This document shows, piece after piece, positions 33,851-46,568 of a DNA stretch of 64,000 bases (the first letter of the stretch is position 1; each line of letters begins with the position of its first letter). The stretch is taken from positions 20,376 through 84,375 of the forward strand of contig JAZRZN010000002.1 in NCBI GenBank assembly GCA_045601365.1, in the 5' to 3' direction. This DNA comes from Clostridia bacterium. Lineage in GTDB: Bacteria > Bacillota > Clostridia > Christensenellales > QALW01. A program made the position numbers and the translations under genes. The notes beneath the pieces are model-generated. The model saw only the letters and a list, made by a program, of their open reading frames with translations, was not told the origin of the DNA and did not search any database.

Positions 33851-33871
33851 TGAATGGTCGGGAGAAATAAT

Positions 33872-34576
33872 ATGTTGAAAAAGGATGCCGAACGAAAAGC
33901 CAATACCGATTTTTTTACCGTCGAAGCATATAAGCTTGCAAGAACGAATATCGCATTGTCGATCATAAAAAACGGTTGCAAAAAAATACTTATTACAAGC
34001 CCGCTTCCGAGTGAGGGCAAGACGACTACCGCATGCAATATTGCGGCGGCGTTCTCCAAACAGGTCAATTCACGCACGCTTCTTATTGACTGTGACCTGA
34101 GAAAACCGTCCGTCAGCCGTTTCTTCAGGATAAAGAATACGCCGGGCATTACAAATTACCTGGGCGGAATGAATACGCTTGATGAAGTAATACAAAATGT
34201 GCCGAATACCGAGCTTTCGGTGATCTGCGCGGGGATCATACCGCCGAACCCATCCGAACTGCTTTCAAGCTCGCAATTCGCCGAGATGATCGAAGAGCTT
34301 GAAAAACGCTTTGATTATATCATTATCGACACTTCGCCGATAAATATCGTATCGGATGCGATCCCCATAACCAAGCTTGTTGACGGCGTTGTGACGGTTA
34401 TTTTCGAACAGAGATCCACTTATGCCGAACTGGAAAAAACGGTACAGATACTTAACCGTCATGAAGCAAAAATACTCGGTATAGTCCTCAACGGAAGCAA
34501 AAGTAAAGAAAATGCATATAAGAATAAGAATCAGAAGCGGTATGGCAGATACGGCTACGATTCTTTACAACAATAA
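33872..34576 (+). CDS. CpsD/CapB-type BY tyrosine-protein kinase
   Basis: Walker A SPLPSEGKTTT, A' DCDLRKP, B IIIDTSP, and a Tyr-rich tail YGRYGYD. Start moved to ATG 33872, which follows GGGAGAAA. Confidence 0.85.
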   Translation: MLKKDAERKANTDFFTVEAYKLARTNIALSIIKNGCKKILITSPLPSEGKTTTACNIAAAFSKQVNSRTLLIDCDLRKPSVSRFFRIKNTPGITNYLGGMNTLDEVIQNVPNTELSVICAGIIPPNPSELLSSSQFAEMIEELEKRFDYIIIDTSPINIVSDAIPITKLVDGVVTVIFEQRSTYAELEKTVQILNRHEAKILGIVLNGSKSKENAYKNKNQKRYGRYGYDSLQQ

Positions 34577-35265
34577 TGATGCTGTGCGATATCCATACAC
34601 ATGTTTTGCCCGGACTTGATGACGGCTCGGCTGATATCGGAATAAGTACAAAAATGATAGAACAAATGCGCTTGCAAGGCGTGACTGATGTATGCCTTAC
34701 ACCGCATTTTTATCCTCAGAATATGCCGGTCAGCCGTTTTGTACAAAAGCGTGATGAATGCATTTCACGGGTGCAACAGCTTTTTGACAGTGCCGGCATA
34801 ACTGTACATCCCGCTGCCGAGGTACGGCTTTCACAGAACCTTTTTTTTAACGAAAGCATAAACGACCTTTGCATCGACGGAAAAAGCTATCTGTTGCTTG
34901 AATTGCCGTTTACACCGATCTCGGTCACGGAAATCGAAAAAAGCATAAATCACCTTTTTGCAAATTATTCGGTTACTCCGATAATCGTTCATCCGGAACG
35001 TCAGAATTATATTTTTAATCTTACCGCACTTACCGCATTTGCGGATATGGGGTGTCTGGTGCAGTTTGATTCAGGTTCGCTCAAAAACATTTTTATAAGG
35101 CAAAAACTCATTCGCTTTATATGTGATGATTTGATACAGCTTGTCGGAAGCGACTGTCACGGCAGCGTCAAGCGCACCCCCGATATGATTTCGATCAATA
35201 AGTACCTTGACGAACAAACCGTATCAAAGCTTTTTGAAAACAACGCAGCGATAATCAACCGATAA
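34576..35265 (+). CDS. CpsB-type PHP-family protein-tyrosine phosphatase
   Basis: N-terminal CDIHTHVLPGLDDGS, a later HPER motif and GSDCHG. Confidence 0.85.
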   Translation: MMLCDIHTHVLPGLDDGSADIGISTKMIEQMRLQGVTDVCLTPHFYPQNMPVSRFVQKRDECISRVQQLFDSAGITVHPAAEVRLSQNLFFNESINDLCIDGKSYLLLELPFTPISVTEIEKSINHLFANYSVTPIIVHPERQNYIFNLTALTAFADMGCLVQFDSGSLKNIFIRQKLIRFICDDLIQLVGSDCHGSVKRTPDMISINKYLDEQTVSKLFENNAAIINR

Positions 35266-35686: not shown

Positions 35687-36424
35687 TTGAAAAGGAAAAC
35701 ACTTCTCTTTTGCATTATTGTGATGCCCATTTTGGCGGTAACGTGTATCGCGTTGCTTTTTTACTGTGGGGTGTTGCATTTCAACAACATTGACAGAGAA
35801 AAGTATCCGATCATCGGCGTGGATGTTTCATCGTATCAGGGAGAGATAGATTGGAACGAATTGTCGCAAAACGATATTCGGTTTGCGTTCATTAAGGCTA
35901 CCGAAGGATCGTCATTTGTTGATCCGCTGTTTGAGAAAAACCGGCGTGAAGCACAAATGACAGACTTGCGTATCGGGGCGTATCATTTTTTCAGCTTTGA
36001 ATCATCGGGTGCAAATCAGGCGAAATCGTTTTGCAATACGGTCAAAAAGGTCGAAAACATGCTTCCGCCGGCTATAGATGTTGAATATTACGGCAAATTC
36101 AATTCTGCTGATGATATTGACGTGTCCGCAATAAAAAAAGAGCTTCGTGATTGCATTAACGTGATCGAAAAAGAATTTTCGGTCAAGCCTATCATTTATG
36201 TGACTCAAAAATCGTTTGAGGAAATCGTTCAGGATGATTTTTCGGATTGTTGTCTATGGTTCCGAAGTGTATACGGAAAAGTACCTCGAAATGTACCGTG
36301 GACTTTTTGGCAGTATTCAAACAGACATGTTCTGACAGGCTATAACGGTAAAGAACGTTATATTGATATGAATGTCTTTTACGGTACGGAGGATGAGTTC
36401 CGCGCTTTCACTGCAAGATATTGA
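35687..36424 (+). CDS. GH25 muramidase (lysozyme) with N-terminal membrane anchor
   Basis: IGVDVSSYQGEIDW and FAFIKATEG GH25 motifs. Start moved to TTG 35687, 6 nt after AAGGAGAG. Confidence 0.85.
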   Translation: MKRKTLLFCIIVMPILAVTCIALLFYCGVLHFNNIDREKYPIIGVDVSSYQGEIDWNELSQNDIRFAFIKATEGSSFVDPLFEKNRREAQMTDLRIGAYHFFSFESSGANQAKSFCNTVKKVENMLPPAIDVEYYGKFNSADDIDVSAIKKELRDCINVIEKEFSVKPIIYVTQKSFEEIVQDDFSDCCLWFRSVYGKVPRNVPWTFWQYSNRHVLTGYNGKERYIDMNVFYGTEDEFRAFTARY

Positions 36425-37211
36425 TTCCCGTCTTTTCGGGAATTTTTTTATGTTTTCTGAAAGCATCCGGTGTGATACCGATATCCTTTTTGAATGCCCG
36501 AATAAAATAATTTGCGCTCGAATAGCCGCACAGCGCGGCGATGTCGGCAATTTTTAAGTCGGGATCGTCAAGCAGTTCGACTGCGGAGGAAATGCGCAGT
36601 GAGGTAAGATATTTTGCGGGCGTTTGACCGTATTCGGATAAAAACAGCTCATTCATGCGGCGGGGCGAAAGCGATATATGCGATGCGGCATCGTTTACAG
36701 ATAGGGTGCTGTTCATATAATTGCGCTCAAGGAAATCCTTTGCATCGGCTATTCTCGGATGCGCGTTTTTGCTGTTGAGCTTAAGTATCATCGACATTAT
36801 AGAATAAAAATGCGATACACATTCGTATTCGTCGGACGGTGTGCAGGAGGCTGTAAAGCGTTCCCATGAATCAAGTATTTTGAAAAACTCGTTTTTGATT
36901 TGCGGGTATGAACTGCAATCAAACATAGAAAGATGCATGTCGAACGGCGTAAGCGTCGTAAAGTGTATGGCGATACAGCCGCCGGCTGATACGGATGTGT
37001 CGTTTACATTTTGCGTCACGGCATAGCTGTCACTGCTGTTTGCAACCATTATCATGTCTTTTTTTAATATCATTTCGTCATTTCCGACCTTATGAACAGA
37101 GCTTCCGTACAGCTTATATGCTATGAAATTATCGTTACCGCCACTGCGCACCCAATTATCCTTGAATATGTTGAAACGGTATATCCGTGTTATTTTATCA
37201 AGAATCATCAT
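36408..37211 (-). CDS. AraC-family transcriptional regulator, divergent from the GRE gene
   Basis: C-terminal double HTH (IADIAALCGYSSANYFIRAFKKDIGITPDAFR). Confidence 0.85.
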   Translation of the reverse strand: MMILDKITRIYRFNIFKDNWVRSGGNDNFIAYKLYGSSVHKVGNDEMILKKDMIMVANSSDSYAVTQNVNDTSVSAGGCIAIHFTTLTPFDMHLSMFDCSSYPQIKNEFFKILDSWERFTASCTPSDEYECVSHFYSIMSMILKLNSKNAHPRIADAKDFLERNYMNSTLSVNDAASHISLSPRRMNELFLSEYGQTPAKYLTSLRISSAVELLDDPDLKIADIAALCGYSSANYFIRAFKKDIGITPDAFRKHKKIPEKTGINILQ

Positions 37212-37346
37212 TTTGAATCACCCGAGAAAATAATATCAGAAAATAGCCGGATTTTCAATAGTAAATTTCCGCAAAATGCTATTTTTCTTAAATTTGCGAT
37301 TTACTTTTGCCCAAAAGAGTATTAAAATCGTTTTGAGGTGACGGTT

Positions 37347-39584
37347 ATGGAAACATTCAAAAATGAACTTTATGATTTTTATTTGAATAAAATCGACGGT
37401 ATGGCTGACAGCTTTGCCGAAAAAATGTTTGTACTGCTCGATTCTTTTGTTTCGCCGGATATGAACGGATATCAGCGTAAGGCTTTACAGTATAAAACTA
37501 TCGCGGAACATGCAGAGCCGATACTGTTTCATACATCTCCGTTCTACCATGAGCTTGGCACGATGATAGCGGTTTGCGACGGATGCGGTTCTTTCCACGG
37601 ACACAAACACGCGGGCGGTTGGAATTTTGCACGATACGGTCATTTGTATTCGGAGCTTGAGCCCGAGCTGATGAAATTAAAAAACAAACAGGCGGAAAGC
37701 CTGCTGTACTTGATTTGCGGACCGTTCAGCGACTGCATGCAGCATTTTATGTTCAACTGCAAGCCGGTATTTGCGGGCGGACTTAAGGCTCTTTATGAGG
37801 AAGCAATAGCACGGTCTGCCGACGCAAAGGGGATAGAAAAGGATTTTTTGGATTCCGCTGTTGAAGGCTTGCTTGCAATGAAGCGGATATCGGAAAAGTT
37901 TTCAAAAAAAGCACTTAAAATGGTTGAGGGCGCAACCGGTGAGGAAAGAAAAAATCTGTTGCGCATAGCGGATGCATCATCGTATACGCCGTGGAATGCA
38001 CCGCGCAGTTTTTATGAAGCACTCAACACACTTGCTTTCACACGAACCGTATGCGGCGCACTTGAGGGAGTGGGGTATAATACCTTCGGGCGACCCGATG
38101 TTGAGCTTTTTCCGTTTTATAAGCACGATATCGAAAACGGCTTGCTTACAAAAGACGAAGCATATGACTTGATCTGCAAATTCCTTTTGACGTGGGATCT
38201 TCATTACGATCATGATATGAAGATGGTGGGATATGCCGATCATGAGCTGGAAAACACATATACGCTCGGCGGATGTGACGAAAACGGTGAGCCTGTGTGG
38301 AATGAGCTGACGGAAATGTTCCTGCGTGCAACACGCGAGCATAAGATAATTTTTCCTAAAATCAAGGTGCGCTTTTCGGCAAATTCGCCGAAGGAATACC
38401 TTGACGCAATAAACGAAAGCGTGATAAAGGGCACTACGGTGGTGCTTTACCAAAATGACGATGCCGCTGTTCCGGCACTTGTCAACGCCGGATTTTCACT
38501 GAAAGATGCGCGTGACTATATCGTTACAGGTTGTTGGGGGCTGATGACGAACGGCAATTTCATGGACGACCACGGCAATTATGTAAATCTTTTGAAGGCG
38601 TTCGAGTATTCCGTTCACGACCTGAAAGAACAAAGCAAGTATGCGGAAATAGATTTTCTCCCGTTCGATGGCGCAAAAAGCTTCGATGAAGTATACGATA
38701 TAACGCTCGAAAATTGCAAGAAACTGTTTCGTGCGCGTAACCGCATCACGCTTGAGGGTAAACCCTTGTGGCATATGACAGACCCCGTGCCGCTGACATC
38801 GGCTTCAATGGATGATTGTCTTAAAAATAAAAAAGACCTGACGAACGGCGGGTGTAAATATCACAACGAACACTATCAGTGTGTGGGATTTCCGAATATA
38901 ATAGATTCGTTGCTTGCCATTAAGACGCTGTGCTTCGATGAAAAGAAGTATTCGCTTGCGGAGCTTCTTGCGGCGGTGAGAAATAATTGGAAAAACTGCG
39001 ATATAATGCGGGCGGATGCGATGCACTGCCATTGCTGGGGCGATGAAAGCAAGGAATCGTCTGCTCTTGCGCAAAGATTCAACCATGACCTGTATGTTGC
39101 ACTCGGTGAGATTGAAACACTGTGGGACGGGGGACGGATAGACCTCGGGCATCTGACGTATACGGAAATAAGATTCTGGGGCGAAAAGACGCTTGCAACG
39201 CCCGACGGGCGCAAAAACGGAGATTACTTTTCGCAGGGGCTGACACCGTCAAGATTGCACAGCATACCGAATGTCACATCCGTTGTAAACAGCCTCAAGG
39301 CGCTTGATGCGCGCGAAATGGCGGGGAATACCGTGGTCAATATAATCCTCCCGTCAAATAAGATGTCGCTTGATAACTGCGAGGCTTTTTTGCGGGCATG
39401 CGCCAATACGTCGATGCTTTCGTTGCAGCTCAATTGCGTAACGAAAGAAGAACTGCTTGATGCGCAAAAGCATCCCGAAACGCATCGCGATCTTATAGTT
39501 CGCGTCTGCGGATTCTCGGCACGCTTTACGAGCCTTTCACCCGAATGGCAGGCGGAAGTGCTTTCGCGGAATTTCTATGATTAA
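37347..39584 (+). CDS. glycyl radical enzyme, PFL2/dehydratase-like family, unknown substrate
   Basis: C-terminal glycyl-radical motif DLIVRVCGFSARFTSLSPEWQ. Candidate thiyl loop RDYIVTGCWGLM. Start ATG 37347 follows GAGGTGA. Confidence 0.8.
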   Translation: METFKNELYDFYLNKIDGMADSFAEKMFVLLDSFVSPDMNGYQRKALQYKTIAEHAEPILFHTSPFYHELGTMIAVCDGCGSFHGHKHAGGWNFARYGHLYSELEPELMKLKNKQAESLLYLICGPFSDCMQHFMFNCKPVFAGGLKALYEEAIARSADAKGIEKDFLDSAVEGLLAMKRISEKFSKKALKMVEGATGEERKNLLRIADASSYTPWNAPRSFYEALNTLAFTRTVCGALEGVGYNTFGRPDVELFPFYKHDIENGLLTKDEAYDLICKFLLTWDLHYDHDMKMVGYADHELENTYTLGGCDENGEPVWNELTEMFLRATREHKIIFPKIKVRFSANSPKEYLDAINESVIKGTTVVLYQNDDAAVPALVNAGFSLKDARDYIVTGCWGLMTNGNFMDDHGNYVNLLKAFEYSVHDLKEQSKYAEIDFLPFDGAKSFDEVYDITLENCKKLFRARNRITLEGKPLWHMTDPVPLTSASMDDCLKNKKDLTNGGCKYHNEHYQCVGFPNIIDSLLAIKTLCFDEKKYSLAELLAAVRNNWKNCDIMRADAMHCHCWGDESKESSALAQRFNHDLYVALGEIETLWDGGRIDLGHLTYTEIRFWGEKTLATPDGRKNGDYFSQGLTPSRLHSIPNVTSVVNSLKALDAREMAGNTVVNIILPSNKMSLDNCEAFLRACANTSMLSLQLNCVTKEELLDAQKHPETHRDLIVRVCGFSARFTSLSPEWQAEVLSRNFYD

Positions 39585-39864
39585 AAGCATCAATAACGAA
39601 ACATGGGGCGGTCACGCAACGACCGTCCCATGTAAGCTTTAAGAAAAAACATTTACCTGATATCTGCTTTATATGCTCGCGGTAAAAATCAGGCGCATCG
39701 TATTGGTCGCTTATCACCCACACAGTGCCGAGCGCATGCTTTTTTATCTTATCAAGCGCGTATGCGAATTGGCTGAAGCCGGGACTTCCGCCCGCGCCCA
39801 TAAGCGTCATGCCTATTTTCTGTTCGTCATTCAGCTCTTCGAATTTAAGCGGTGTGTGTTTCAT
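39526..39864 (-). pseudogene. truncated paralog of the GH3 gene (N-terminal ~70 codons only)
   Basis: MKHTPLKFEELNDEQKIGMTLMGAGG...HALGTVWVI parallels MKEIKELRFEDLSVDQKLGMVMMGSGG...HALGTMWVV of ORF 40732-42312. Similarity is lost near nt ~39650. The ORF tail then runs through the GRE terminator hairpin and the GRE 3' end. Confidence 0.65.
39601..39633 (+). terminator. 13-bp stem-loop downstream of the GRE gene
   Basis: ACATGGGGCGGTC acgcaac GACCGTCCCATGT (one G-T pair). No clear T-run. Confidence 0.5.
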
Positions 39865-39874
39865 GATGATCTCC

Positions 39875-40720
39875 TTACAGCTTCAGAAGTATAATGGATG
39901 ATATCCCGAGGCAAAAGCCTATTATCTGGAGTACGGTCAGCTTTTCCTTGAAAAGGAACTTGCCTGCCGCAAGCGAAGCAAGCGAGGTCAGCGCGGCTAT
40001 TACGGGCGACATGACGGTCAGATTTTCCACCGATGCAAGATACAGTGAAACAAAGCACGAGCCGCCGTTTGCCACGCCCGAAAGTATACCGTTGAGATCA
40101 ATAAGCTGTTTTGCGGTTTTCGGCTTGTGCTTGCACAGCATGATAACGGTGAATACCAATGATGCGATGACCATCGTGTAAAGCATGAATTCCACCATAT
40201 AGCTGTTCGGAAACGCCTTTTGATGCAATTTCTTGACTATCGAACAGCAACCGTCGGAAATCATGGTCGTTACCGTGAAAATGAACCATTTCAGATTTGC
40301 TTTTTTGTCGCTTCTTTTCTTTGCGTTTATAACAAAGAGCGAAGAAAACAGAAGAATCAAGCCGATGATGCCGAACACCGAAAGGCTTTCGCCAAGAACG
40401 AATATACCGAACGCACACGGGATCATCAGCGAAAACGATATTATCATCGACGTTATCGCCAAGGGACCCGATGCAAGTGCCTTAAGTCCCGCCCACATCG
40501 AAATCAGAATAAAAAACGCATATGCAAGTGAATAGAGCAATGTCGGTAAATGGAACGATAACGAAAGCACGACTCCCATCAGCAGGAACATCAGCGAAGC
40601 ACCAACCGTTTTATTCACGTTGAAAATATCCTGATCGCCCTTGTTGCCGCCGTACTTGCACAGCGAACACTGTGCGACCGAAAGCGCAACGCTTCCCGCG
40701 TATGCAAAAAATACTAACAT
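39875..40720 (-). CDS. DMT-superfamily (EamA-like) 10-TM transporter
   Basis: 281 aa with two 5-TM halves. No cytosolic domains. Confidence 0.7.
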   Translation of the reverse strand: MLVFFAYAGSVALSVAQCSLCKYGGNKGDQDIFNVNKTVGASLMFLLMGVVLSLSFHLPTLLYSLAYAFFILISMWAGLKALASGPLAITSMIISFSLMIPCAFGIFVLGESLSVFGIIGLILLFSSLFVINAKKRSDKKANLKWFIFTVTTMISDGCCSIVKKLHQKAFPNSYMVEFMLYTMVIASLVFTVIMLCKHKPKTAKQLIDLNGILSGVANGGSCFVSLYLASVENLTVMSPVIAALTSLASLAAGKFLFKEKLTVLQIIGFCLGISSIILLKL

Positions 40721-40731
40721 ATATCCACCTG

Positions 40732-42312
40732 TTATTTAAGATCGACTTTATAAGGAAGCTTACCTGTCGGCTTATACAGACCTGCCACCGCGTCGATCGC
40801 ATAAAGCACGGCGTTGGCTGATTCCGGCGGTCCGGCGATGATGCGCTTCATGTGCGGAACGCTCTCAAGCACGAACGGGTTGCCGAAATACAGGAACGCG
40901 GCTATCTTATCGGTGCTTTGAAGTGCTTCAAGTGTGCAGATTATCCTTGATGTAAAGGCATCGTAGCCCTGATACGGCTTTGAGCTTACAAAGCTGATGA
41001 AAACCACATCGTCATAGTCGTTTGCCGATTGCAATAAGTTACGGATATCGCCTCTGTCGGGGAACTGCGAGATAGATGTTATGTCCGAATTTGGGAACAG
41101 CTTTTGCACACGGGGAACTATCTGACGCGGATGATACCATTCGACGATATCGTTATCCTCGCCCTTGAAAATATTCTCAGCCTGTTCGGTCATAACGACG
41201 AAAAGATGCTTGCCGTCTCTCGGAACAGACAGCTCCAGCCCCTCGTCGGTGATAGCCGCGATGCTGTTACGGTTGATTTTTTCCGAAATAGCGTAATCCT
41301 CTTCGGTAAGCTCAACTTCCTTGGCATTAACGAAAATATCGTGCTGGAAAGCAAGCACACGCTTAACAGCTTCGTCAAGGCGTTCCTCGGTAAGCACTCC
41401 GCGCTTGTAAGCGTCCTTAAGGCTTTCGTAGCAGATGCGCGGCCATTTTGTCCATGAAAGCGCAATATCGTTGCCGCCCTGTATGCACAGCGGGAAACGT
41501 TCATCGCCGTATTTTGAGCGGATGCCGTTCATATCAAGGCTATCGGTCATGAATATGCCCTCAAAGCCTTGACGGCGGAGTATGTCGGTTACTTTTTTAG
41601 AAAGCGTTACGGGGAAATCCGGGTCTATCTTCGGCAGACGCGAATGCGATGTCATCGCGCCGTCAAGCAATCCTCTTTCGATAAGCTTACGGTACGGATA
41701 GAGATTGTCTTCAAGCAGCTCTTCCTCGCTGAGTTCGCAAAGCGATTCAAGCATATGCGAATCCGTTTTGGATATAACGCTCGGGTAATGCTTTACTATG
41801 GACTTTATTCCCGCATCGTGGAAGCCGCGGATGTAGGCGGATGCGAATTCCACCAATTTATCCTTATCGTCGGTGAATGATCTGTACAGTTCGCGAAGCT
41901 TCGTGATATTCAGATTGGTACGTTCGAGTATCGGACTGCAAACAGTGTTATAGCCTGTCCTGTTTGCCATTTTCCCGACAGACAGTGCAAATTTATATGT
42001 ATCCTCAATGCTGTCGTTTATGCCGATAGCCATTTGCTTGCCTATCTCATAGCCGGGATAGCCGCTCTCCATATCACAGCATATGATTATGGGATAATCC
42101 GCGACCTCTTTTATCTTTTCGATGCACTTTCTTGCGGAATCATCTTCCGTCGGAACGACCCACATAGTACCGAGCGCATGGTTTTTGATAAGCTCAAGCG
42201 CAAAATCGAAATCAGGCTCAGCCCATTTGACACCGCCGCTGCCCATCATCACCATGCCGAGCTTTTGGTCAACGCTCAGATCCTCAAAACGCAACTCTTT
42301 TATCTCTTTCAT
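40732..42312 (-). CDS. glycoside hydrolase family 3 (NagZ-like beta-N-acetylhexosaminidase/beta-glucosidase)
   Basis: KHYPS..DSH and nucleophile region FMTDSLDM. Start moved to ATG 42312, which follows GGAGGTG. Confidence 0.8.
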   Translation of the reverse strand: MKEIKELRFEDLSVDQKLGMVMMGSGGVKWAEPDFDFALELIKNHALGTMWVVPTEDDSARKCIEKIKEVADYPIIICCDMESGYPGYEIGKQMAIGINDSIEDTYKFALSVGKMANRTGYNTVCSPILERTNLNITKLRELYRSFTDDKDKLVEFASAYIRGFHDAGIKSIVKHYPSVISKTDSHMLESLCELSEEELLEDNLYPYRKLIERGLLDGAMTSHSRLPKIDPDFPVTLSKKVTDILRRQGFEGIFMTDSLDMNGIRSKYGDERFPLCIQGGNDIALSWTKWPRICYESLKDAYKRGVLTEERLDEAVKRVLAFQHDIFVNAKEVELTEEDYAISEKINRNSIAAITDEGLELSVPRDGKHLFVVMTEQAENIFKGEDNDIVEWYHPRQIVPRVQKLFPNSDITSISQFPDRGDIRNLLQSANDYDDVVFISFVSSKPYQGYDAFTSRIICTLEALQSTDKIAAFLYFGNPFVLESVPHMKRIIAGPPESANAVLYAIDAVAGLYKPTGKLPYKVDLK

Positions 42313-42608
42313 AAATACACCTCCGATGTTATTTTTGCTAAGTATACTATTTTTTTCGGCACAAATCAAGCAATAAATCAAGATTTATACGCCTGAATTA
42401 AAGATTTTTATTCATTGTGTAAATATTATACAATCGAAAAACCGATAAGTAAATATCCGTATTTAATCAAAAAGATGGTATTTCTGATGATTATAGTTTT
42501 TTGCCTGCTGTCAGGGGCGCATAAACGATACTGCCGGCAGGGGGGACTGTCTGAAAGGACTTTTAAAGCACCGATCGTGTCGGTGCTTATATCGTTCGGT
42601 ATTCTGTT

Positions 42609-43511
42609 TTATTTTGAGAAAACTTTTTTGTAAATCGATATTATACGCAATATGATTTTCTCACGGAGCTTAAGACCTGAAAAAAGTTCCTTGTTGCTGA
42701 TTTGAGCATTTTCTGCGGAGTTTTTTGCATAAAGAACATTCAAGAGATATCTTTTTGATAAAAACTTATACTTGTCGGGGCATTCCTGCAATATGTATTT
42801 ATACAAACGGTATGCGTTCAAATAATGTTCTTTGCTTTTTTCGTATTTTCTGTTTGAAAGACTGCGCTCGTTTGCCGGCGGTATGTGGTAGATCCTGAAA
42901 ATCTCATTTGTGTAGAACTGATCATAATCATTTTTTATCTGATCCCACAAAAAACTTTCAAAAATAAATTTACATCCCTCAATTTCGGGGAATTTGTACT
43001 GTTTTACTATTGAAACTTTTTGAAAACCGCATTTTTCACCTTTACACTGTTCCAATACTTTTTTTAATGCACGCTTGCTGAGCGAATTGATATTTTCGGG
43101 GAATGGCTTGCCGACCATTTCCATTTGCCTGTTTTTGACGCAACGGCCGTTTATGCACCATATTCTGTCCTTTGCGGCGGGATCCATTGAATCCCACATA
43201 CGAAGACCTTTCTCCATTGCATCGGGCAATAGCTCGTCATCGTCATCTATCTGGAAGCAAAACTCTGTTTCCGCCAGATCATACAGCCAATTAAGCGCGC
43301 AATGCTTTCCTTTGTTTTCCTGATAATAATATCTTATCGGGAATGTACTGCTTTTTTGAAATTCCCTTATAACATCTTCAGTGTCGTCCGTTGATCCGTC
43401 GTCAACAATGATCCATTCAAAATCCTTGTATGTCGATGCTTCAAGTGAAGAATACAATCTGTGTAGCTTTTCAGACCTGTTATATGTGGGCGTCAATACC
43501 GATACTCTCAT
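42609..43511 (-). CDS. family-2 glycosyltransferase
   Basis: VSVLTPTYNRSEKL...WIIVDDGSTDDT and a DDDDE (DxD) motif. Confidence 0.85.
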   Translation of the reverse strand: MRVSVLTPTYNRSEKLHRLYSSLEASTYKDFEWIIVDDGSTDDTEDVIREFQKSSTFPIRYYYQENKGKHCALNWLYDLAETEFCFQIDDDDELLPDAMEKGLRMWDSMDPAAKDRIWCINGRCVKNRQMEMVGKPFPENINSLSKRALKKVLEQCKGEKCGFQKVSIVKQYKFPEIEGCKFIFESFLWDQIKNDYDQFYTNEIFRIYHIPPANERSLSNRKYEKSKEHYLNAYRLYKYILQECPDKYKFLSKRYLLNVLYAKNSAENAQISNKELFSGLKLREKIILRIISIYKKVFSK

Positions 43512-43675
43512 TTTCCACTCTCCTTTTGTGACAACTTTATATTTTGATTATATCATTTTATGCTTTATTTTGCAATATATTTTCAAAAATCAAATTGTCT
43601 GCCGCACGAAATGCATTTTAAGGAGGCGCTGATTTATTCGCCTCATATGAAGTCACCGAATTGATAAGCACTTCT

Positions 43676-44542
43676 TTAATGTTTTGCGCCCCTGCTGTAC
43701 TCTCCCGGCGTAACGCGGTAAAACTTTTTGAATGCTTTGCCGAAGGACTGCGTGTCGGCAAAGCAGAGCTGCTCGGCGGTATCGGATATGGAATGACCGG
43801 ATCTGAGCAGTGCGGAAGCCTTTTCTAAGCGACGGGCGGTATAGTAATTCATTACCGTCATGCCCATTGCATCGGAGAATTTCTTTGAAAGATAGCCGTA
43901 GCTGTAGCCAAGCTCGGAAGCCATATCTTTTAATGAATGTATTTCACAAAGGTATGTTTCGATGTACTGTATCATGTCGTATATGAGCTGATTCGGCTGA
44001 CGGTGTACGGCAGAGTGAAGTTCGCTTTCCGGGCGGAAGTGACGGAACACGAGTATCATTACCTGCTGGAGATACGCCTTTATCAACGGAACGGCAAGCG
44101 TGTTTGCCGATGTTGCTTCTTCAACCACCGAGACGAGTGTCGGATAGACATCACGGCATGAATACGCTGTAGGCTCATCAAGCTCATCGAACATGCGGTT
44201 TATCACTTCGGCGCACTGCCAATCGTCACTGTCACGGTTGAAGCTGAACGCAAAGCTTATAAAACGAAGGGGATGCGTACTGTCGGAGAGTATTTTGTGA
44301 TCATCGCCTTTTCTGCTCAAAAAGAGCATACGCTCACCGACATCGTAACAGATGCCGTTGCGGTACATTTTTCCGAGTCCTCCGACAATATATGTTATTT
44401 CATTGCAAAGCTGTCTGTGCTGTGGGATCTCCTGCGATACAGTGCAGGAAATGTCACTTATCTGATAGACATTGAAGGAATCAAAGAACAGCGGTTGATC
44501 CCAATATCCGATATCTATGTGATATTTCTTTTTGCGTACCAT
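43676..44542 (-). CDS. AraC-family transcriptional regulator
   Basis: C-terminal HTH pair (ISDTAEQLCFADTQSFGKAFKKFYRVTPGEY). Divergent from 44695-46568. Confidence 0.85.
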   Translation of the reverse strand: MVRKKKYHIDIGYWDQPLFFDSFNVYQISDISCTVSQEIPQHRQLCNEITYIVGGLGKMYRNGICYDVGERMLFLSRKGDDHKILSDSTHPLRFISFAFSFNRDSDDWQCAEVINRMFDELDEPTAYSCRDVYPTLVSVVEEATSANTLAVPLIKAYLQQVMILVFRHFRPESELHSAVHRQPNQLIYDMIQYIETYLCEIHSLKDMASELGYSYGYLSKKFSDAMGMTVMNYYTARRLEKASALLRSGHSISDTAEQLCFADTQSFGKAFKKFYRVTPGEYSRGAKH

Positions 44543-44694
44543 ACTGACACTCCTTTTCGACAGTATATCTCCGTCAGCATCAATATGTCAAACATTTTCG
44601 AAAAAATAATAAAGAATTGACACAAAATGATATTTCTTTGACATTGCAAGGCTGTACTTTACTGATATAATAGTGTGTGCGAAGGAGGGATTTT

Positions 44695-45624
44695 ATGATT
44701 TTTGCATATCTTATACATTTAGGACAGAATTTCTGGAAAGAACAGGAAGACGATAATTCCGTGCCGCTCGGACGTTGGTCAGATACTCTTGTGACAGAGG
44801 ATGCTTCGTGGGAAATGATAACCGCACATATAGCCGCATCGGGTGTCAATACACTTGTTATCGACCTCGGTGAGGGCATACAGTACGAATCGCACCCGGA
44901 GCTTTCGTGTAAGGGCGCATGGCCTAAGGAAAGAGTAAAAAAAGAGCTTGACCGCATCCGCAAGCTCGGAATGGAGCCGATACCGAAGCTGAATTTTTCG
45001 GCACGGCACGATGCGTGGCTCGGGAAGTATTCGCATATGGTATCGACGCAGGTTTATTATAAAGTGGTTGCGGAGCTTATCGACGAGGTGTGCGAACTGT
45101 TCGACACACCGCCGTACTTTCATCTCGGAATGGATGAGGAGTGGCCGGAAATGGCGGGCGGAGGCTTCATTTGCATGCGTCAGGGCGAGCTGTTCTGGCA
45201 CGACATAAGATATCTCTGCGCTTGCTGTACCAAAAACGGCGTGCGACCGTGGCTGTGGGGCGATACGGCGACGTTCAAGCTTGAAGAGGCTATCGCAAAT
45301 TACCCCAAGGAAGCGATAATTTCAGCCGCAAACTATATCCGCATTCGCAATACGCATTTGATGAACGCTCATGAAAAAGCGTATACCGATCCGTATTTTG
45401 CGTATGCCGATAACGGCTTCGAGCAAGTGCCTACCTGCGCTACATATTACAATACTCAGAATGCCGACGATACGATGTATTTGCTTAAGGATAAACCGGG
45501 CGTGATAGGTTTCCTTACCGCGCCGTGGTTCCGCACACGCAAATCCGATGAGCTTAAGCATCTTGCCGAAGCGGATATATTCGGTGCGGCAATAGAGAAG
45601 TATTTCGGAAAGGAGCGCAAATAA
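44695..45624 (+). CDS. uncharacterised hydrolase-like protein, paralog A (possible TIM-barrel glycosidase; HLGMDEE motif)
   Basis: Start ATG 44695 follows GAAGGAGGG. Clear paralogy with the next ORF. FHLGMDEE is reminiscent of the GH20 H-x-G-G-D-E catalytic motif; this is not validated. Confidence 0.55.
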   Translation: MIFAYLIHLGQNFWKEQEDDNSVPLGRWSDTLVTEDASWEMITAHIAASGVNTLVIDLGEGIQYESHPELSCKGAWPKERVKKELDRIRKLGMEPIPKLNFSARHDAWLGKYSHMVSTQVYYKVVAELIDEVCELFDTPPYFHLGMDEEWPEMAGGGFICMRQGELFWHDIRYLCACCTKNGVRPWLWGDTATFKLEEAIANYPKEAIISAANYIRIRNTHLMNAHEKAYTDPYFAYADNGFEQVPTCATYYNTQNADDTMYLLKDKPGVIGFLTAPWFRTRKSDELKHLAEADIFGAAIEKYFGKERK

Positions 45625-46568
45625 TGGATAATAAGATATGGGCATGCCGGCTGTGCCTCGGCTATAACATATGGTTCGATGAGGGCTATAAGATGACCTT
45701 CACCGATGACGACAGACAAAAAAGAGATTTCCTTTATTTTGACGAAGAGGTTTTCGGCGAACTGTGTGATTTTCTTGCGGAGCAGGGCTTCAACACGGTC
45801 GTGCTTGAGCTTGCGGAGGGCATGATATATGACAGCGCTCCTGAGCTTGCCGTAAAAGGAAGCTTTAATAAATCCAAAATGCGAAAACTGCTTGAATATA
45901 TGCGTTCACGGGGGCTTACACCGATACCGAAGCTTGATTTCTCGGCGGCGCACGATGTATGGCTCGGCGAATACGGCAGGATGCTTTCAACTGACGAATA
46001 TCGCGAGCTTGGCGCAAAGCTGATCCGTGAGGTGTGCGAGCTGTTCGACCGTCCCGAATACTTTCATCTCGGCTTCGGCGATGAAACACTTGAGGCACAA
46101 AAATATTATCAGTATGTCGTTGTACGCGGCACGGTGAATTTTTGGCACGATCTGAATCATTTTGCGGATGCGTGCCGCAAAAACGGTGCAAGACCGATAA
46201 TTTCAGGTGATCTGTATTACCGTCAACCGGAAATATTTGAACAGTGTATTGCCGACGATATCGTTATCGAAGCAAAATACACCGAATACATGGTTGCGGA
46301 AAAAGATAAGTTCGGACGTGACCTGCGTCCTGATGTGCAAAAGAAATTTGAAAGCCTTATACGGCTTAAAAACGATACCATCTATGCGTGCAACGGCATA
46401 ACTGCTTTCAATACGGATTCGCTGTGCGAATATGCCGCAAAATGCGATTTGCCGAATTTTATCGGGATGATGACATCGTCCGATGAGCCGACCGCGCGCC
46501 GCGTAGCAAACTTCATCAAGCATGACGCATCACGCCTTGCCGCGGGGAAGAGGTTCTTTATAAGCTAA
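45624..46568 (+). CDS. uncharacterised hydrolase-like protein, paralog B (HLGFGDE motif)
   Basis: Shares G.NT.V..L.EG..Y.S.PEL..KG...PIPKL.FSA.HD.WLG.Y..M.ST...LI.EVCELFD.P.YFHLG with paralog A. Its start overlaps the stop of A. Confidence 0.55.
   Translation: MDNKIWACRLCLGYNIWFDEGYKMTFTDDDRQKRDFLYFDEEVFGELCDFLAEQGFNTVVLELAEGMIYDSAPELAVKGSFNKSKMRKLLEYMRSRGLTPIPKLDFSAAHDVWLGEYGRMLSTDEYRELGAKLIREVCELFDRPEYFHLGFGDETLEAQKYYQYVVVRGTVNFWHDLNHFADACRKNGARPIISGDLYYRQPEIFEQCIADDIVIEAKYTEYMVAEKDKFGRDLRPDVQKKFESLIRLKNDTIYACNGITAFNTDSLCEYAAKCDLPNFIGMMTSSDEPTARRVANFIKHDASRLAAGKRFFIS

Follow-up and report, generated by a model that had tools for sequence, protein, structure and literature searches.

Results

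A full-length glycyl radical enzyme with a G-C-W cysteine loop

What can a glycyl radical enzyme (GRE) do when no activase is encoded beside it and when its cysteine loop lacks the glutamate found in characterised eliminases? This question is raised by a 64-kb stretch of the genome of a Clostridia bacterium (contig JAZRZN010000002.1), referred to below as the window, which means the whole stretch of DNA analysed. The window contains a single GRE gene, divergent from the gene of an AraC-type regulator. A preliminary description of this locus covered the range 36408..39633, which spans the divergent AraC gene, the GRE gene and a hairpin at 39601..39633. On balance, we favour the reading that the enzyme is functional, AraC-controlled and activated in trans, and that it performs elimination- or isomerisation-type chemistry with a rearranged catalytic set. 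The enzyme is a member of a large clade from Clostridia of the gut and rumen; this clade, uncharacterised so far, is defined by an invariant G-C-W Cys loop (the GCW clade).

The GRE coding sequence (37347..39584, + strand) specifies 745 aa from an ATG, and an alternative GTG start at 37338 in the list of open reading frames (ORFs) extends the frame (37338..39584, +) to 748 aa. The ATG at 37347 was taken as the start because it is preceded by GAGGTGA and a 5-nt spacer. A database entry identical to the window GRE (P0001) also has a length of 745 aa, and the 745-aa protein is almost certainly the real product. Residue numbers in this text follow the 748-aa form, and three has to be subtracted for the 745-aa numbering. 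Pfam analysis of the ORF identified both GRE domains, PFL-like (PF02901; E 4.5e-87, 293.7 bits, cutoff 24.3) and Gly_radical (PF01228; E 2.3e-17, 63.9 bits, cutoff 22.2). The C-terminus ends in DLIVRVCGFSARFTSLSPEWQAEVLSRNFYD and includes RVCGF, the glycyl radical fingerprint R722-V-C-G725-F (39501..39515, +), which bears out the earlier description of a real 745-aa GRE carrying an RVxG[FY] motif.

The Cys loop G398-C399-W400-G401 is encoded at 38529..38540 (+), with C399 as the predicted thiyl radical cysteine. The catalytic Cys had originally been placed by eye, and alignment with characterised GREs led to the same position. In a phmmer search of all PDB chains, DARDYIVTGCWGLM aligned over DARDYGIIGCVEPQ of glycerol dehydratase (GDH), with C399 on C433 and G401 on E435, and the Cys-loop register was the same for the A. 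fulgidus GRE and for HypD. A profile of 30 family members gave the identical register against CutC, GDH, HypD, PD and 2F3O. In total, five independent alignments agree on a gap-free register around G-C, in which TGCWG of the window enzyme aligns with GCVEP of GDH, CutC and HypD. A canonical GCVE is found nowhere in the GRE protein. The comparison therefore confirmed the Cys loop and did not relocate the Cys.

The AlphaFold model of the enzyme (pLDDT 86.9) places strands 394-397 and 401-404 on either side of G398-C399-W400, so that C399 would be expected at the tip of a predicted hairpin, as in a Cys finger loop. Confidence in the model is low for the Gly loop and C-terminus (726-748) and for residues 618-633. 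The best structural matches in Foldseek were CutC, PflD, 2F3O, GDH, PD and HypD (TM 0.80-0.85, ~20% identity), and the modelled fold is the ten-stranded beta/alpha barrel of the GRE superfamily. The enzyme thus carries every element required for a glycyl radical to be held at G725 and passed on to C399.

The clade keeps one substrate contact of known eliminases and changes two other sites

A protein search with the GRE (E <= 1e-10) returned 612 matches, and the clade comprises more than 120 protein clusters. The 120 top-ranking representatives were all 55-70% identical and ~745-750 aa long, and those that bore a name at all were listed as 'pyruvate formate lyase family protein' or 'hypothetical'. 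When one genome per species was scanned, 212 relatives were found; the locus analyses presented here concern the best 80 of them, in which 79 GCW genes were counted. All the best 80 loci came from metagenome-assembled genomes of uncultured Clostridia, the sources being the guts of humans, ruminants, horses and other animals, as well as digesters. The taxa represented included Oscillospiraceae, Acutalibacteraceae, Christensenellaceae, Acetatifactor, Faecousia and Flemingiibacterium, and a genome often carried several GCW copies.

In a 30-sequence alignment, the invariant residues were Q135, H136, N248, Y299, D301, H302, E303, E305, N306, G398, C399, W400, Y415, N417, H605, T607, Y608, T609, E610, R722, V723, G725, F726, S727 and A728. 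The resulting clade signature consists of QH135-136, N248, DHELEN301-306, GCW398-400, HLTYTE605-610 and RV[CT]GFSA, position 724 of the glycine motif being C or T across the family alignment. The CW pair was found in 121/121 database representatives. The residue two positions after the Cys was G in 83 of them, D in 28, L in 3, Q, E and S in 2 each, and N in 1. The missing Cys-loop Glu (C-W-G) pointed out in the preliminary description is thus shared by 119 of the 121 representatives. Because this residue varies so widely, an acid two positions after the Cys is dispensable, and the position does not hold a conserved catalytic residue. A motif table of 100 GREs from the loci gave the same clade pattern and, for the remaining GRE families found there, a retained C-x-E (GCNEP, GCNEW, GC[YH]ET and GCVEI). 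CXE, the Glu of which forms a hydrogen bond with the substrate or deprotonates it, is kept in all characterised eliminases and isomerases (2026 review).

Two further sites bear on the chemistry. The codon of His136, in the invariant Q135-H136 pair, lies at 37743..37745 (+) and was assigned by profile alignment to 1R8W, 5I2A and 2F3O, in which His136 aligned with GDH His164. In PMC8473560 and the 2026 review, this beta1 site is described as a common substrate contact (HypD His160, CutC Asp216, IslA Gln193). The second site is Glu305 (codon 38250..38252, +), which lies within the motif D301-H-E-L-E305-N, six residues before an invariant GG. Profile alignments with a gap-free register to the GG anchor placed it at the position of CutC Phe395, GDH Tyr339 and PD Phe344, and HypD Phe340 likewise corresponds to it. 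Glu305 is invariant in the family, and DHELE was present in 107/121 representatives. According to PMC8473560, which deals with the IslA structure, an aromatic residue at this site packs on the substrate in known GREs (CutC Phe395, HypD Phe340, IslA Trp374). The clade therefore retains the beta1 His, while the CXE Glu and the substrate-packing aromatic are both changed.

Acidic residues are invariant on the predicted active-site strands, as are Asn, His and Tyr. According to our reading of the alignments, most of the invariant Arg residues match Arg in solved GREs, and none lies on the strands mapped to the active site. Since no new invariant Arg was recognised on these strands, unlike in sulfonate- or phosphate-binding GREs, a non-anionic substrate would fit. 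Taken at the level of sequence, chemistry unlike that of known dehydratases and lyases is plausible.

No characterised subfamily accommodates the enzyme

None of the NCBIfam models reached its cutoff with the GRE. The score for TIGR01774 (PFL2/glycerol dehydratase family) was 285.1 against a cutoff of 678.2, and the eliminase equivalogs were further away (score/cutoff: HypD 228/1100, CutC 212/1050, HpsG 250/1000). The group of GRE decarboxylases (HPAD, IAD, AAD) does not fit either, as NF033718 (154/1100) and NF033715 (122/1150) also remained far below their cutoffs. The enzyme is not a PFL/TdcE either, given 48 bits against 994 for TIGR01255 (PFL) and a single loop Cys instead of the two adjacent ones of PFL. 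The family profile scored 143 bits against the PDB decarboxylase 2Y8N and 193 bits against 7E7L, compared with ~300 bits for eliminases, and no conserved small ORF that could encode an HPAD-type small subunit was seen beside the GRE in the locus ORF comparison. Of the features of the PFL2 class, the enzyme shows the beta1 contact (His136) but neither CXE, nor the aromatic packing, nor scores above the cutoffs. No characterised GRE subfamily fits, with all NCBIfam equivalogs so far below cutoff. Neither a GCW-loop GRE nor an AraC-GRE-activase cassette in these taxa was described in the literature that was searched, which lay outside subscription journals.

The nearest known systems are GDH of Clostridium butyricum (1R8W) and the PFL2-type eliminases (PD, HypD, HpfG, IslA/IseG, HpsG). 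They share the fold and domain order with the window GRE (TM ~0.8), their catalytic Cys and Gly align with its own, and the activases are of the PFL2 type. They differ in that identity is only ~20-23%, they have C-X-E where the clade has C-W-[G/D/A], and the window GRE is ~40 residues shorter and lacks a microcompartment or aldehyde-processing context. CutC (5FAU) ranked first both in the structural comparison (TM 0.85, Foldseek E 5e-35) and in the profile search. Its Glu491 corresponds to Gly401, its cation-pi partner for choline, Phe395, is replaced by Glu305, and a cut-type microcompartment locus is absent here. We also take CutC Phe389 to align with Tyr299 and, by way of the common beta1 site, CutC Asp216 to be the counterpart of His136.

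Comparable similarity (TM ~0.81-0.82) was found for the isomerases YbiW and PflD, which act on 1,5-anhydrohexitol-6-phosphate (8ID7, 8ID0, 8YJO). Like the GCW genes, they have a simple gene context without a long downstream pathway. YbiW and PflD bind a phosphate, in contrast to what the lack of new invariant Arg on the mapped active-site strands would suggest for the GCW clade. They provide a precedent for carbohydrate-type GRE substrates and keep CXE (Glu443 and Glu433, respectively; 2026 review), which the GCW clade does not.

These comparisons bear on whether the enzyme could be an ordinary dehydratase of 1,2-diols or of the glycerol type, with known chemistry and either a misaligned loop or a Glu supplied by a neighbouring loop residue. 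GDH is the best single-sequence match in PDB (E 8.8e-61), the dehydratase His is kept, and the 28 members of 121 with an Asp two after the Cys could be seen in the same light. We nevertheless regard this explanation, and misalignment in general, as unlikely. The five alignments share one gap-free G-C register in a protein devoid of GCVE, and an acid two after the Cys is dispensable, since most members have Gly or Ala there. Furthermore, the substrate contacts of GDH are replaced (S282, Y339, D447 and Y640 by N248, E305, G413 and L606), the TIGR01774 score is 285 against 678, and aldehyde-processing genes are not found nearby.

The activase is part of the ancestral unit and is often missing from the locus

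A search for CxxxCxxC in six-frame ORFs of at least 60 aa gave four matches in the 64-kb window, none of them, judged by the ORF lists, in a plausible gene. A hidden Markov model was then derived from 38 activases encoded at related loci; with filters off, and applied to all six-frame segments of at least 30 aa, it detected neither an activase nor a remnant in the window (best E 0.19). The reported absence of an activase from the 64-kb window therefore stands. A pair of ORFs of 737 and 271 aa at 55.6-58.6 kb, which by size might have been a PFL and its activase, was rejected, as the two encode PNPase and an esterase.

Clustering of ~1,050 ORFs from the 80 loci revealed only three recurrent clusters, namely the AraC-like regulator, the GRE and a protein of 270-290 aa with a Cys-rich insert. 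Three examples of the last protein scored 324-338 bits on TIGR02494 ('glycyl-radical enzyme activating protein', cutoff 174), and the activases of the clade are of the PFL2 type, with a Cys-rich ferredoxin-like insert. Such an activase lay directly downstream of the GCW GRE in 28/69 informative copies and elsewhere within 10 kb in 10/69. It was absent from the locus in 31/69 (~45%), the window included; for 10 of the 79 GCW copies, which are outside the 69, the downstream sequence was too short to judge. The term 'orphan', applied to the GRE in the preliminary description, does not suit a family in which a TIGR02494-class activase directly follows 28 of the GREs and is found within 10 kb of another 10. 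AraC, GRE and activase together form the ancestral unit of the clade, and the lack of an adjacent activase is a common local feature of the family and not an anomaly.

Activase-linked and activase-less copies occur side by side. In genome SIG604, one copy (L053) has an activase, whereas another (L062) has none in a full 10 kb of downstream sequence. Similar pairs were found in SIG680 (L031/L055) and CAKVOK (L050/L038), where the activase-less copies have only 2.5-3.6 kb of downstream sequence. The loci L041, L044, L045/L046 and L016 contain three to four GREs with one or two activase genes. Within the subclade of the window GRE, an activase was present in L002 (5082..5915) and L005 (12250..13089) and was not found in L001, L004, L007, L008 and L024.

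Several of these loci belong to multi-GRE islands, which gut Clostridia were seen to have. An uncharacterised family of short GREs with a GCNEP loop (~705-764 aa; L041, L043, L044, L045, L046, L039 and L016) often has one activase in common with GCW genes. A second uncharacterised short family with GCNEW (~685 aa) is encoded at L035 5738..7789, L042 2956..5040 and L064 2909..4954. An SDR gene follows it, and in L042 and L064 so do genes for a BD-FAE esterase, a peptidase of the M20 type and a hydrolase with a beta-lactamase fold. Another GRE-like family, with a GC[YH]ET loop and the unusual glycine motif RVCGWNVLW, was found beside GCW genes at L016 13192..15426, L044 5903..8137 and L074 1..2178.

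The window gene is under purifying selection

In L001, the closest relative of the window GRE (87% identity), the 5 kb available downstream are likewise devoid of an activase. Comparison of the two genes gave pN 0.079 and pS 0.676 (dN/dS ~0.05), and dN/dS values of 0.12-0.16 were obtained for other activase-less pairs (L007 versus L024 and L008). Because activase-less copies are under such strong purifying selection, activation in trans is the likely and most economical reading. There is precedent for a GRE without an adjacent activase to be activated in this way. One activase can serve several GREs, as E. coli PflA does with PflB, TdcE and GrcA; trans-activation of the window GRE would follow the same principle. 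HPAD activases cross-react across species, a behaviour limited to GREs with very similar Gly loops (2026 review).

The alternative is that the window copy is a decaying relic, which has lost its activase by deletion, can no longer be activated and is turning into a pseudogene. The absence of an activase or remnant from 64 kb is what this explanation expects, and the region has been rearranged, as indicated by a truncated GH3 remnant ~75 nt downstream and a 4.1-kb indel relative to L001. The gene itself does not look like a relic. Its frame is full-length with all family-invariant residues intact, dN/dS is ~0.05 relative to a gene that has no adjacent activase itself, the promoter/operator block is perfectly conserved and the AraC partner is intact. 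In addition, activase-less copies make up 31/69, some of them in genomes with activase-linked paralogues. Decay is thus an unlikely explanation. The overall picture that the sequence data suggest is that of a regulated, functional gene under strong purifying selection.

A divergent AraC regulator and a conserved control region

The gene divergent from the GRE (36408..37211, - strand) encodes an AraC/XylS-family regulator of 267 aa, as assigned by Pfam (HTH_18, E 3.8e-21, 75.6 bits, cutoff 33.6; HTH_AraC, E 2.7e-17). The N-terminal ~170 aa, presumably a sensor domain, had no match in Pfam, and all NCBIfam equivalogs were below cutoff for this regulator. A divergent AraC-like gene lies directly upstream of the GRE in 59/77 informative family copies, so the regulator noted at the outset has proved to be a conserved partner of the enzyme.

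The two genes are separated by a divergent control region (37212..37346), which was analysed by consensus scanning and by inspection of the sequence. The region includes GAGGTGA, the presumed ribosome-binding site ahead of ATG 37347, and consensus matches point to a putative promoter for the GRE (TTTACT-17-TAAAAT, 37300..37328, +) and another for the AraC gene (37258..37230, -). Comparison with L001 revealed a conserved block of 35 bp, TTCAATAGTAAATTTCCGCAAAATGCTATTTTTC (37254..37288), which contains ATTTCCG. This block is 100% identical in L001, while synonymous sites of the GRE have diverged to a pS of 0.68. The hexamer TTTCCG was found in 31/79 upstream regions of the family, compared with a mean of 4.1 and a maximum of 10 in shuffled sequences. 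It often occurs within ATTTCCG-N4-5-T[TG][AG]C, sometimes as a direct repeat. The element lies upstream of GCW genes at L005, L010, L012, L014, L027, L034, L047, L056, L062, L065, L066, L068, L071, L075 and L080. The paired AraC regulators may have their operator in the ATTTCCG element, and the conserved promoter/operator block, together with the family-wide element, supports the notion that expression of the GRE is regulated.

On the other side of the gene, a 13-bp hairpin (39601..39633, +), with a folding energy of -24.4 kcal/mol and a z of -4.9, lies 16 nt 3' of the stop codon. A terminator scan of the window did not call it, and a U-tract is absent on the + strand; the hairpin is likely to be a transcript end or a stabiliser. 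The genes that follow it are on the opposite strand, and the + strand has no next gene. The GRE is monocistronic, since a strong hairpin follows its stop codon and the next genes are oppositely oriented.

The gene neighbourhood and a possible terminal reaction

Pfam confirmed GH25 upstream of the GRE and EamA/DMT and GH3 downstream of it, the cell-wall and amino-sugar neighbours that had been proposed. As a clue to the substrate, this GH25/GH3/DMT context was rejected, because the closest relative L001 lacks that segment. In blastn, L001 9122..12237 matched window 36464..39580 and L001 12253..15124 matched window 43697..46559. The 4.1 kb between these matches (window 39581..43696, with the GH3 remnant, EamA, GH3 and GT2) is absent from L001 and, being flanked by the two matches, represents an indel between sister species. 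In L001, the GRE stop codon is 15 bp from a convergent second AraC gene, and the upstream genes, on the GH25 side, differ from those of the window.

The remnant of a truncated GH3 paralogue (69 aa; 39660..39864, -) lies ~75 nt after the GRE stop codon, within an ORF (39526..39864) the remainder of which is antisense to the GRE 3' end. Its identity to the intact GH3 encoded at 40732..42381 is 43%, over residues 30-94 of the latter. Beyond the indel, the second AraC regulator (43676..44542, -), conserved near the GRE in L001, is followed by two divergently oriented genes for paralogous ~315-aa proteins (44677..45624 and 45624..46568), which are also located by the GRE in L001. The pair gave sub-threshold Pfam matches to GH20 (E 0.003 and 0.016) and weak matches to hexosaminidases in PDB, and may represent a divergent glycosidase-like family. 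Judged by eye, the products of two ORFs located 5' of GH25 (33854..35265; 240 and 229 aa) resemble a tyrosine-kinase ATPase of the capsule type and a phosphatase of the PHP family.

A Pfam scan of 130 genes flanking the family loci found no family in more than 6 of them. Besides AraC and the activase, the most frequent were the beta-lactamase fold (6), ABC permeases (6), GH2 (5) and SDR (4). The neighbours seen in the window are therefore not a recurrent feature of the family. Hydrolases, glycosidases, SDRs and sugar transporters in the loci weakly hint at polar compounds derived from the diet or the host, without indicating a pathway. Microcompartment or aldehyde-processing genes were not present near the GRE.

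This sparse context raises the possibility of an enzyme that is also activated in trans but requires no general base on the Cys loop. It might perform a decarboxylation of the Kolbe type, act as a C-C lyase, catalyse an addition, or carry out some other terminal reaction, the product of which would be excreted. A terminal reaction would account for the absence of downstream pathway genes beside the cassette. The conserved unit is just the regulator, the GRE and the activase; aldehyde dehydrogenase, shell and other pathway genes are not recurrent (<=6/130 flanking genes), and both the CXE Glu and the substrate-packing aromatic of eliminases are gone. Moreover, hydrolases found at the flanks of some loci (beta-lactamase fold, M20, BD-FAE esterase, GH2) would suit the release of an aglycone or acid from conjugates. 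By sequence, the clade is nearer to eliminases and isomerases (~215-300 bits) than to decarboxylases and X-succinate synthases (143-197) or PFL (92), and it has an invariant beta1 His, as in dehydratases. Asp, Glu, Asn, His and Tyr are abundant in the predicted pocket, whereas a hydrophobic one would be expected for aryl or alkyl substrates. Overall, we find a base-free terminal reaction doubtful, although it merits more weight than either decay or a conventional dehydratase.

Discussion

The functional, trans-activated eliminase or isomerase that we favour would work as part of a two-gene module, composed of an AraC sensor-regulator and a divergent monocistronic GRE. The radical would be installed in trans by an activase of the PFL2 type from another part of the genome, where its gene most likely adjoins that of a paralogous GRE. 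The following steps are proposed with lower confidence. A polar substrate, neutral or cationic, for example a sugar, a polyol or an amine, may lose a hydrogen to the thiyl radical, with His136 as a possible proton donor to the leaving group. Glu305 is proposed as the substitute for the CXE glutamate because it occupies the site of the substrate-packing aromatic in other GREs; it could serve in hydrogen bonding or as a general base, or else pair with a hydroxyl or ammonium group. Trp400, beside the Cys, could offer an aromatic platform, and the reaction might be an elimination- or isomerisation-type cleavage of a C-O or C-N bond. The many paralogues, each with its own AraC regulator, would then respond to different inducers.

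Several points weigh against this proposal. No activase of the source genome came to light in the 64-kb window, which is part of a 96-kb contig. GRE activases are usually partner-specific, with cross-reaction mainly between very similar GREs (2026 review), so trans-activation would need the activase of a close paralogue and the donor would probably be a paralogous cassette. The roles of E305, H136 and W400 are suggested by sequence alignment, and the Gly loop of the model has low confidence. Conserved pathway genes that would point to a substrate were not found among the 130 flanking genes, and a self-contained cassette of regulator, GRE and activase suits a terminal reaction, for example a decarboxylation, equally well.

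GREs catalyse demanding anaerobic reactions and shape gut chemistry, in the formation of trimethylamine, p-cresol, skatole and the precursor of hydrogen sulfide, and whole GRE clades are still without an assigned function (2026 review). Two rules to which all characterised eliminases and isomerases conform are broken by the present clade, one on the CXE glutamate and the other on the substrate-packing aromatic. We tentatively suggest, as a possibility that goes beyond the window gene, that the GCW enzymes form a new functional class of GREs in which the carboxylate and the aromatic have been swapped, with Glu305 on a barrel strand and Trp400 at the Cys. Such enzymes might act on sugar-, polyol- or amine-type compounds of dietary or host origin in a reaction so far without example among GREs, and their AraC-sensed paralogues would have expanded in uncultured gut Clostridia, several of them sharing one activase. 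For the window gene, the missing adjacent activase is not to be read as lost function. The GCW clade is a well-defined target in the search for a new GRE substrate or reaction, and the paired AraC regulators with their operator-like element offer a route, via reporter screens, to the inducer and hence to the substrate.

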